64,000 nt of DNA from a virus (taxonomy: Duplodnaviria > Caudoviricetes), in the IMG/VR virus record IMGVR_UViG_3300021375_000006, one strand, 5' to 3'. The notes under the pieces were generated by a model. The model did not search any database. It saw only the letters and a list, made by a program, of their open reading frames with translations, and was not told the DNA's origin. The position numbers were made by a program, and so were the translations under genes. Every line of letters begins with the position of its first letter. The stretch's first letter is position 1. This document shows positions 50,947-51,645 of the stretch, piece after piece.

Positions 50947-51107
50947 ATCGTTAAAAAGATGGGAGTCTTAGAACCTGAGTCTTACATTTCCATTGCCTAG
51001 GATGTTAAAAATGCTCTGTTCATAGACTCCCTCTTTGGAGGGAAGGTAATACTAAGTCGCCTTAATATAGTGGTGCGCTTGTGTGAAATTATTCCCTCTT
51101 ATTTTTG

Positions 51108-51179
51108 AGCGAAAGACGAGGATTGAACTCGCGACCCTCACCTTGGCAAGGTGATGCTCTACCGCTGAGCTACTTTCGC
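51108..51179 (-). tRNA. trnG: tRNA-Gly (GCC)
   Basis: GCGAAAG acceptor, TCACC-TT-GCC-AA-GGTGA, GTTCAATCC. Confidence 0.95.
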
Positions 51180-51253
51180 AATTGTAGGTCATCGCTTAAC
51201 CTACGGTGAGTGTACCTTTCACCTTGTTCCCTCTCGGTACTACGATTTTTTTG

Positions 51254-51327
51254 TGGAGAATAACGGAGTCGAACCGTTGACCTCCTGCGTGCAAGGCAGG
51301 CGCTCTAGCCAGCTGAGCTAATTCCCC
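51254..51327 (-). tRNA. trnA: tRNA-Ala (UGC)
   Basis: GGGGAAT acceptor, CCTGC-CT-TGC-AC-GCAGG, GTTCGACTC. Confidence 0.95.
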
Positions 51328-51333
51328 ATCGCA

Positions 51334-51645
51334 TTATTCTGCGTCAGGTACATAAACAGCTGCTCTGCCTTCTATGTCTGCCATTAAAGCTGTAACTTGG
51401 TCTTTTGTATAAGCTGATAACCACGCGCTATCATCTTGTTGTGTTACGCCATCAAAGACTTTACAATCAAATGCGTTGTAAGCATCTGCGCTAGCCTCTA
51501 CTGTTAATTCTGCTGCAGCTTCTGGATCTAGAGAAACTCTAGGTGGTCCTGCTGTTACATGAATTTGAAAAAAGTTATCAAAAACGTAATTTGATTCAAA
51601 TCCATTTTCTAAAGGTTTAAATACTAAGTCTGTAAACTGTGCCAT
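51334..51645 (-). CDS. Hypothetical acidic protein inside the RNA cluster
   Basis: Intact 103-aa ORF. Confidence 0.55.
   Translation of the reverse strand: MAQFTDLVFKPLENGFESNYVFDNFFQIHVTAGPPRVSLDPEAAAELTVEASADAYNAFDCKVFDGVTQQDDSAWLSAYTKDQVTALMADIEGRAAVYVPDAE

Follow-up and report, generated by a model that had tools for sequence, protein, structure and literature searches.

The 73-nt spacer between a tRNA-Ala gene and a tRNA-Gly gene on the minus strand of IMG/VR virus record IMGVR_UViG_3300021375_000006 (a 64,000-nt stretch of Caudoviricetes DNA, referred to here as the window) is, as judged by sequence comparison, one member of a new, phage-specific, uncatalogued and widespread family of small structured RNAs. 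The predicted architecture is conserved among its relatives and consists of about seven A residues, a short AUCGY strand paired with the loop of the final hairpin (H3) in a pseudoknot, an optional and variable hairpin (H1) and a hairpin (H2) abutting H3. Covariation within the H2 loop indicates selection for pairing with a second copy of the same RNA. The explanation considered somewhat better than an even chance is that the spacer is a small-RNA cassette, excised by tRNA processing, which would work in trans as a symmetric loop-to-loop dimer.

Organization of the spacer

The spacer occupies positions 51180–51252 on the minus strand, on which all window features described here lie, and separates tRNA-Ala(UGC) (51253–51327; called by ARAGORN and scoring 69 bits with the Rfam tRNA model) from tRNA-Gly(GCC) (51107–51179; identified by ARAGORN and Rfam). 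The tRNA-Ala gene ends with the discriminator A at 51254 and C74 at 51253; CCA is not encoded and an A-tract comes next. Read 5′ to 3′ the spacer consists of A7, UCGU, AGUACC-GAGA-GGGAAC, AA, GGUGA-(9 nt)-UCACC, GUAGG-(11 nt)-CCUAC and AAUU. The run of seven A's lies right behind tRNA-Ala (51246–51252) and leads into the 5′ strand of a pseudoknot, AUCGU (51242–51246). H1 is a sarcin-ricin-like hairpin of the form AGUA / CC-GAGA-GG / GAA (51226–51241). H2 (51205–51223) has a 5-bp stem, GGUGA/UCACC, and a 9-nt loop that includes the self-complementary GUAC proposed as a kissing sequence (51212–51215). H3 (51184–51204) follows H2 without a linker and has a 5-bp stem, GUAGG/CCUAC, and an 11-nt loop, within which lies the 3′ strand of the pseudoknot, GCGAU (51191–51195). 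The A/U tail AAUU (51180–51183) forms the 5′ leader of tRNA-Gly, with the ribonuclease P (RNase P) cut expected at 51179/51180. The minimum-energy fold of the spacer contains three hairpins at -17.5 kcal/mol (z = -2.5), a value equalled by 2 of 200 shuffles. As a structured RNA unit the spacer scores 82 bits (E 6e-15) with the family covariance model R1, the match spanning 51184–51252. A sequence-only reading of this DNA had placed a three-hairpin RNA at 51184–51247. All three hairpins are present in the spacer sequence and in the minimum-energy fold, and the element it delimited is real, but the unit is slightly longer and takes in the seven A's up to 51252.

Relatives and distribution

Scanning IMG/VR for the core motif of H3 returned at least 120 loci (given L numbers below), most of them true members with a minority of chance matches in coding DNA. 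At least 69 distinct family members were recognized, 52–94 nt in length and located on uncultured phage contigs, nearly all between tRNA genes. Two IMG/VR loci, L002 and L003, carry an Ala-spacer-Gly module with a spacer 100% identical to that of the window in otherwise different flanking DNA. Window positions 51105–51338 are 98.6–98.7% identical to L002:7838–8071 and L003:13551–13763, and the flanks are unrelated. Near-identity of the module between unrelated flanks indicates that the tRNA-Ala-spacer-tRNA-Gly block moves between phages. In large tRNA arrays of phages, BLAST found diverged copies that separate tRNA-Lys from tRNA-Leu and measure 99 nt in the L014 type and 75 nt in the L011 type. 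The covariance model detected one copy per locus, except at L024 where two unlike copies are present.

A scan with a stricter pattern of one genome per species, covering 185,579 prokaryote species, found one true copy, on a 20-kb contig of a metagenome-assembled genome that is crowded with tRNA genes and is almost certainly a phage contig. A blastn search of 50,697 GenBank phage records with two members as queries found nothing real. Abundance in uncultured phage contigs, set against absence from these phage records and near-absence from prokaryote genomes, indicates that the family belongs to uncultured phages. At Rfam 15 gathering scores, twelve loci contained only tRNA, transfer-messenger RNA (tmRNA) and one freshwater-1 RNA, the last in another spacer, and at E values up to 10 no Rfam family was detected in two further members. 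A literature search that included the core-motif string gave no description of the family, although it may still be an unnamed entry in a catalogue of 10,006 candidate phage RNAs (PMC10690425). The sequence-only reading had suggested an Rfam search and a collection of homologues from phage tRNA spacers, and had held that its proposal would fall if homologues and covariation were lacking. The window spacer matches no Rfam family, also at E values up to 10, the collection yielded the 69 or more relatives described above, and both homologues and covariation are abundant, bearing out a compact, multi-hairpin, pseudoknotted RNA of a phage tRNA spacer.

Covariation of the hairpins and pseudoknot

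A plain MAFFT alignment of 22 members, not fitted to any structure, was analyzed with RNAalifold and used to build the covariance model. RNAalifold independently gave both H2 and H3 from this unfitted alignment, with compensatory changes in 7 of 12 predicted pairs. When 74 sequences were aligned by the covariance model, 98.4% of cells were standard pairs compared with 84.7% in column shuffles, a value reached in 0 of 500 shuffles, although the sequences share a phylogeny and shuffle statistics therefore overstate their independence. Sliding the partners by 1–3 columns reduced standard pairs to 51% or less. Compensatory changes were present in all five H2 pairs and in the two outer pairs of H3. 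Essentially no variation was seen in the three inner pairs of H3 or in its 11-nt loop, which reads UUAAGCGAU, A or G, and in most cases U. Scans that freed single positions of the H3 loop and stem found no exceptions to this, and a dedicated scan found no members with an H3 top pair other than G-C. A scan with the central G of the loop changed gave only chance matches in coding DNA, and scans in which position 6 or 8 of the loop was altered gave only a compensated CCUUU/AAAGG type and one variant with a G.U wobble.

The AUCGU:GCGAU pseudoknot was paired in 99% of cells across the 74 sequences. Two of its pairs were changed on both sides, and its fifth position is U or C opposite G with pairing preserved. 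A G.U wobble occurs in the pseudoknot of L242. In the second copy of L024 (6183–6241), L244 and L288 the 5′ strand reads CCUUU and the loop AAAGG in the same register, converting U-A to C-G, G-C to U-A and U.G to U-A. No uncompensated pseudoknot variant turned up in the scans. These comparative data place H2, H3 and the AUCGU:GCGAU pseudoknot far beyond chance. The sequence-only reading had offered two pseudoknots, of which this one is supported, a lineage having switched both strands with pairing kept. Its other option joined GUACC of H1 to the H2 loop sequence GGUAC. The complementarity exists in the window and the pairing is not conserved in the family: the same H1 occurs with different loops in L033, L025 and L085, and the GGUAC loop with different H1 hairpins in L065 and L118. 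GUAC in the H2 loop is better read as a self-complementary kissing sequence than as the partner of GUACC in H1.

The length of the A-run is also conserved, with exactly C plus seven A's in 49 of the 56 members located directly behind a tRNA, and this fixed count fits a structural role. A-rich strands occupy grooves in many H-type pseudoknots. In the layout modelled here, we infer that the A-run would come in from the side of H2 where the pseudoknot helix meets H3, placed for a groove of the invariant G-C-rich H3 stem.

Self-complementarity of the H2 loop

Palindromes of at least 4 nt were present in the H2 loops of 57 of 69 members and palindromes of at least 6 nt in 32 of them (range 4–8 nt), the longest palindrome averaging 5.0 nt compared with 2.7 nt in shuffled loops. 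No fewer than 17 distinct palindromes were observed. Three elements that are alike elsewhere have the palindrome as their sole difference (UGGCCA, UAGCUA and UGCGCA). Many H2 loops are 9 nt long and consist of AA, a 6-nt palindrome and A. With positions 3-8, 4-7 and 5-6 of the 9-nt loop treated as pairs, the covariation score was 0.271 compared with 0.074 in shuffles, none of 500 being as high, and the adjacent central pair (5-6) was GC in 13 cases, UA in 12, AU in 9 and CG in 9. Adjacent bases cannot pair within one chain, so that covariation at this position indicates pairing between two chains and, by extension, selection of the H2 loop for pairing with a second copy. The same argument from adjacent-base covariation was made for the symmetric kissing loops of OLE and GOLLD RNAs and was confirmed by cryo-EM (PMC12286853). 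The two copies at L024 differ in both palindrome and pseudoknot sequence, as expected if cross-pairing between copies must be avoided.

H1 is peripheral

At the sequence level H1 of the window has the bulged-G signature AGUA opposite GAA and a GAGA tetraloop. Two C-G pairs lie between the bulged-G module and the loop, where the sarcin-ricin consensus has one, and the string equals that consensus plus one C-G pair exactly as the sequence-only reading had described. The pattern GUACC-N4-GGGAA is kept in 12 distinct sequences of the subgroup to which the window belongs, with the leading A in 10 of them, and an S-turn module is plausible in the H1 of this subgroup. The GAGA tetraloop is found only in the window type and is GCAA, GAAA, GUGA, AAAA or AAGU in the nearest relatives. 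In other subgroups H1 is an unrelated plain hairpin with compensatory changes, often GNRA-capped, and about ten members are without it, so that most of the 69 members have either another hairpin in place of H1 or none. These comparisons identify H1 as a peripheral and exchangeable part of the predicted structure and not its functional core.

Ribotoxins and elongation factors recognize the sarcin-ricin GAGA loop, and the sequence-only reading had raised the possibility that the RNA is a mimic decoying one or the other. Retention of the bulged-G signature with GAGA in the window, and of GUACC-N4-GGGAA in the 12 subgroup members, would suit such a mimic. The contact site itself is replaced in the nearest relatives, the stem carries an extra base pair and the hairpin is another one or missing in most of the family. 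With the GAGA loop not conserved and H1 dispensable, the likelihood of a decoy of this type is close to negligible.

Genomic setting

Fifty-six of 74 members start directly after a tRNA, with discriminator, C74 and A's in succession, and those tRNAs represent 12 isotypes. In 50 of 74 members H3 is followed at a distance of 4–8 nt by a tRNA or tmRNA, with an A/U-rich tail in between. Most of the remaining members are flanked by tRNA-like genes that ARAGORN missed. L027 and L074 are genuine exceptions in which the element lies between a protein gene's stop codon and an intrinsic terminator. Many tRNAs of the same arrays are only 2–10 nt apart with no element between them, and there is usually one copy per array.

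Clustering of 420 neighbouring open reading frames (ORFs) from 72 loci identified HNH, GIY-YIG/NUMOD3, RNase H-like, QueC and phosphoesterase proteins, and indicated no partner gene among them. HNH endonuclease genes lie beside the arrays in 23 of 72 loci and GIY-YIG/NUMOD3 genes are also common. Homing-endonuclease genes in this position fit a shuffling of tRNA-plus-spacer modules between phages. The window itself is a phage-like contig of approximately 35% G+C with tail-fibre, exonuclease, DNA-ligase and auxiliary metabolic genes. No close cultured relative of it was found, its DNA ligase reaching no more than 33% identity with proteins of cultured phages.

A conserved tRNA-sized gene is located behind many elements (L064:3439–3515, L135, L097, L040, L039, L046 and L024:6247–6320). 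It has a normal T arm and an odd 5′ half, is not called by ARAGORN and may represent an atypical tRNA, its anticodon possibly being CCA. Arrays of 22–23 tRNAs are headed by their own tmRNA in L014 (1189–1570), L015 (3495–3875) and L022 (9696–10080), and the initial pattern for tRNA-Ala-spacer-tRNA-Gly also matched the tRNA-like 3′ end of phage tmRNAs.

Other structured spacers in the same arrays

A sister spacer was observed between tRNA-Asp and tRNA-Ala (L011:2917–2989, minus strand; L014:2749–2820, plus strand). It shares the layout of the family, with an A-run, a short strand complementary to the loop of the last hairpin and three hairpins, and two of its loops are palindromic, one with AUGCAU or AAUAUU and the other with CGUACG or UGUACA. 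Being bivalent, units of this type could link up into chains. A scan for this type found only 16 loci, mostly among the family loci already collected. Another recurrent spacer family of approximately 63 nt is located between tmRNA and tRNA-Gly and between tRNA-Pro and tRNA-Thr (L014:1571–1634, L014:2262–2324, L004:268–331 and many others). Its members conserve UACAGCAA and are closed by a stem, GGAUGC..GCAUCC, in which compensatory changes occur; no Rfam family was matched. The freshwater-1 RNA (RF02979) was detected at L037:9512–9573 on the minus strand, with 74 bits against a cutoff of 72 bits, and also within 185-nt Gln-Pro spacers (L011:3438–3622 and L015:4505–4689). The palindrome GUGCAC lies at the centre of its first hairpin.

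Loop palindromes were counted in 192 dereplicated tRNA spacers from L001–L138 that do not belong to the family. Palindromes of at least 4 nt were observed 71 times compared with 45 expected, and those of at least 6 nt 18 times compared with 8 expected, five of the 18 being T-loops. Random windows of the same loci showed no enrichment. The enrichment in these spacers is modest, and self-pairing loops may be a general theme of the arrays.

Proposed function and alternative explanations

In the explanation given slightly better than even odds, the unit would be co-transcribed with the flanking tRNAs. RNase P cleavage at tRNA 5′ ends is established tRNA biology, and the cut at the next tRNA would make the 3′ end of the unit, while the nuclease releasing the CCA-less upstream tRNA at its 3′ end would cut at or in the A-tract and so create the 5′ end. 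The pseudoknot and short 3′ tail would protect the excised RNA, which would accumulate. Two copies would then join loop to loop in a symmetric rod with the order pseudoknot, H3, H2, H2′, H3′, pseudoknot′. This dimer would act in trans by binding a host or phage protein or RNA, or by titrating it, and would not be needed for processing of the neighbouring tRNAs. A role in trans is favoured because the element is dispensable between most tRNAs, is indifferent to isotype, is found outside the tRNA context and is conserved beyond the needs of a spacer.

Several points weigh against this explanation. The member set is composed of the matches listed, from at least 120 loci. The retrieval patterns fixed the H3 loop and inner stem, such that the apparent invariance of these parts is partly imposed. 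The pair counts rest on an alignment fitted by the model, with which the unfitted RNAalifold run agrees, and the switched pseudoknot represents a single lineage of three sequences. The window palindrome, at only 4 nt, is at the weak end of the family range, with approximately -1.6 to -4.4 kcal/mol for a plain duplex, and three members (L111, which has GAAC, L099 and L072) have no palindrome, each having lost it by a single base change.

The most serious alternative is an unlikely one, namely a spacer acting in cis on processing or insulation. It would keep the folding of adjacent tRNAs independent, offer the A-tract to an endonuclease of the RNase E, Y or Z type and position the RNase P leader, the excised piece being waste. 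The exact fit of the element between C74 and a point 4–8 nt before the next tRNA is as this account would have it, as are the A's directly after C74 of upstream tRNAs without encoded CCA, and the A/U-rich tails, which are usual for RNase P leaders. Against this, most tRNA pairs of the same arrays do without the element, which is usually present once per array beside any of 12 isotypes and can also follow a protein gene ahead of a terminator. Nor would a landing pad for processing enzymes call for an 11-nt loop without variation, precisely seven A's or a loop complementary to itself. An improbable alternative is a new class of small ribozyme that would cleave itself at its 5′ boundary, at or within the C-A7 junction, to release the 3′ end of the upstream tRNA, and that may need to dimerize for activity. 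The conservation has a ribozyme-like pattern, combining unpaired bases that do not vary with a pseudoknot and an A-rich strand, and the position directly 3′ of tRNAs is that of theta ribozymes (PMC10879173). The strand order is nevertheless unlike that of the hepatitis delta virus (HDV) fold, copies exist outside the tRNA context, and no known ribozyme model matches at E values up to 10. This last result, like the absence of any Rfam family, accords with the sequence-only reading, which had matched the RNA to no ribozyme consensus. A speculative combination, also rather improbable, is that of an RNA class working only as a symmetric dimer, either as a dimer-dependent self-cleaving ribozyme trimming the 3′ end of the preceding tRNA or as an RNA-only particle tying tRNA precursor transcripts together in the manner of a miniature GOLLD or ROOL. 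The sister spacers with two palindromes could in that case build chains or condensates.

A role in counter-defence is very unlikely. It would have the pseudoknotted RNA mimic the substrate or antitoxin RNA of a host nuclease, such as that of a type III toxin-antitoxin or a tRNA-targeting system, and titrate that nuclease. Phages are thought to carry tRNA genes partly against tRNA-depleting defences, and restriction of the family to phages and its position among tRNA genes are in keeping with this, as is, by analogy, the combination of a pseudoknot with A-rich single-stranded flanks, a feature of ToxI-type RNAs. The element is nonetheless single-copy, without a tandem repeat array, and shows neither a ToxI-like Rfam match nor a partner protein among its neighbours. 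That there is no RNA element at all, and the spacer is a degenerate tRNA gene, a DNA-level target for homing endonucleases or recombination, a tiny coding frame or a set of chance hairpins, is hardly credible. The spacer is tRNA-sized, HNH and GIY-YIG genes are common nearby and a GUG behind a purine-rich stretch opens an 8-codon frame across H2, but the compensatory changes keep RNA pairing while altering both the DNA word and the putative peptide. A degenerate tRNA was rejected as neither ARAGORN, with relaxed and mitochondrial modes included, nor the Rfam tRNA model made a call. The candidate frame (51205–51235, minus strand; GUG plus 8 codons to a UAA in the H3 loop) was also rejected, since variants with a 17-nt H2 lack the start and do not end there and stem covariation changes the peptide, and it is judged an accident of the RNA structure.

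Comparison with known systems

The small-RNA cassette proposed here can be compared with several known systems. GOLLD, ROOL and OLE are phage RNAs often found near tRNA islands, in which loop palindromes switch (among GGCC, GAUC and AGCU, for instance) with covariation of adjacent bases (PMC12286853). The H2-loop palindrome resembles those of the GOLLD and OLE kind in being maintained through covariation that includes adjacent bases. GOLLD, ROOL and OLE are, however, 500–800 nt or more in length and form cages or long dimers, whereas the present family measures 52–94 nt and has one kissing loop, from which a dimer is expected. Neither sequence similarity nor an Rfam match to GOLLD, ROOL or OLE was found. 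The apical loop of the human immunodeficiency virus 1 dimerization initiation site contains a 6-nt palindrome flanked by A's, a layout like that of the H2 loop in many members, but the two are not homologous, their biological settings differ and the window palindrome has 4 nt. The palindrome of that site and its compensatory mutants have been reviewed (PMC7357161).

HDV-like theta ribozymes behind phage tRNAs (PMC10879173) are likewise small pseudoknotted RNAs directly 3′ of phage tRNA genes. The HDV fold is a nested double pseudoknot of order P1, P2, P3, P1′, P4, P2′. The order in the family is a, H1, H2, b, a′, b′, where b and a′ are only 4 nt apart and a′ and b′ only 2 nt, and it is not a nested double pseudoknot. 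HDV-type models gave no Rfam match at E values up to 10, and cmscan of the spacer region of the window and of two other members at the same limit found no hammerhead, twister, twister-sister, pistol, hatchet or hairpin ribozyme.

Freshwater-1 is also a small conserved RNA between tRNA genes of the same phages and has a hairpin loop with a palindrome, but it differs in sequence and fold, and its model does not match the element studied here. ToxI-like type III antitoxins form a tandem pseudoknot array beside a toxin endoribonuclease gene; the family is single-copy and no such neighbour was seen. The species 1 and 2 RNAs of phage T4 (rnaC and rnaD) are stable small RNAs of a phage tRNA cluster that are released by tRNA-processing enzymes. 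These are larger than the family members, are unrelated in sequence and have no known dimerization loop. The bulged-G (loop E) module of the rRNA sarcin-ricin loop shares AGUA/GAA beside a tetraloop stem with H1, from which it differs in that H1 has the extra C-G pair and a loop that is not conserved, and is dispensable. As every test of membership based on a model or on topology failed, the element is a member of none of the compared systems. It belongs with the structured RNAs found in phage tRNA islands, a group that includes self-associating members.

Structured RNAs are increasingly being recognized in phage tRNA clusters, with GOLLD, ROOL, theta ribozymes and freshwater-1 as examples, and the family adds one that is very small and very sharply defined. 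In its minimal form of approximately 55 nt (L037:11543–11597) it combines a pseudoknot that underwent a coordinated switch in one lineage with a self-pairing loop. Its 17 or more orthogonal kissing palindromes on one scaffold may serve RNA nanotechnology. Being tiny, abundant in metagenomes and provided with natural orthogonal variants, the family is an unusually tractable system and is suited to asking why phages make self-associating RNAs beside their tRNAs, whether for tRNA maturation, RNA stability or counter-defence.

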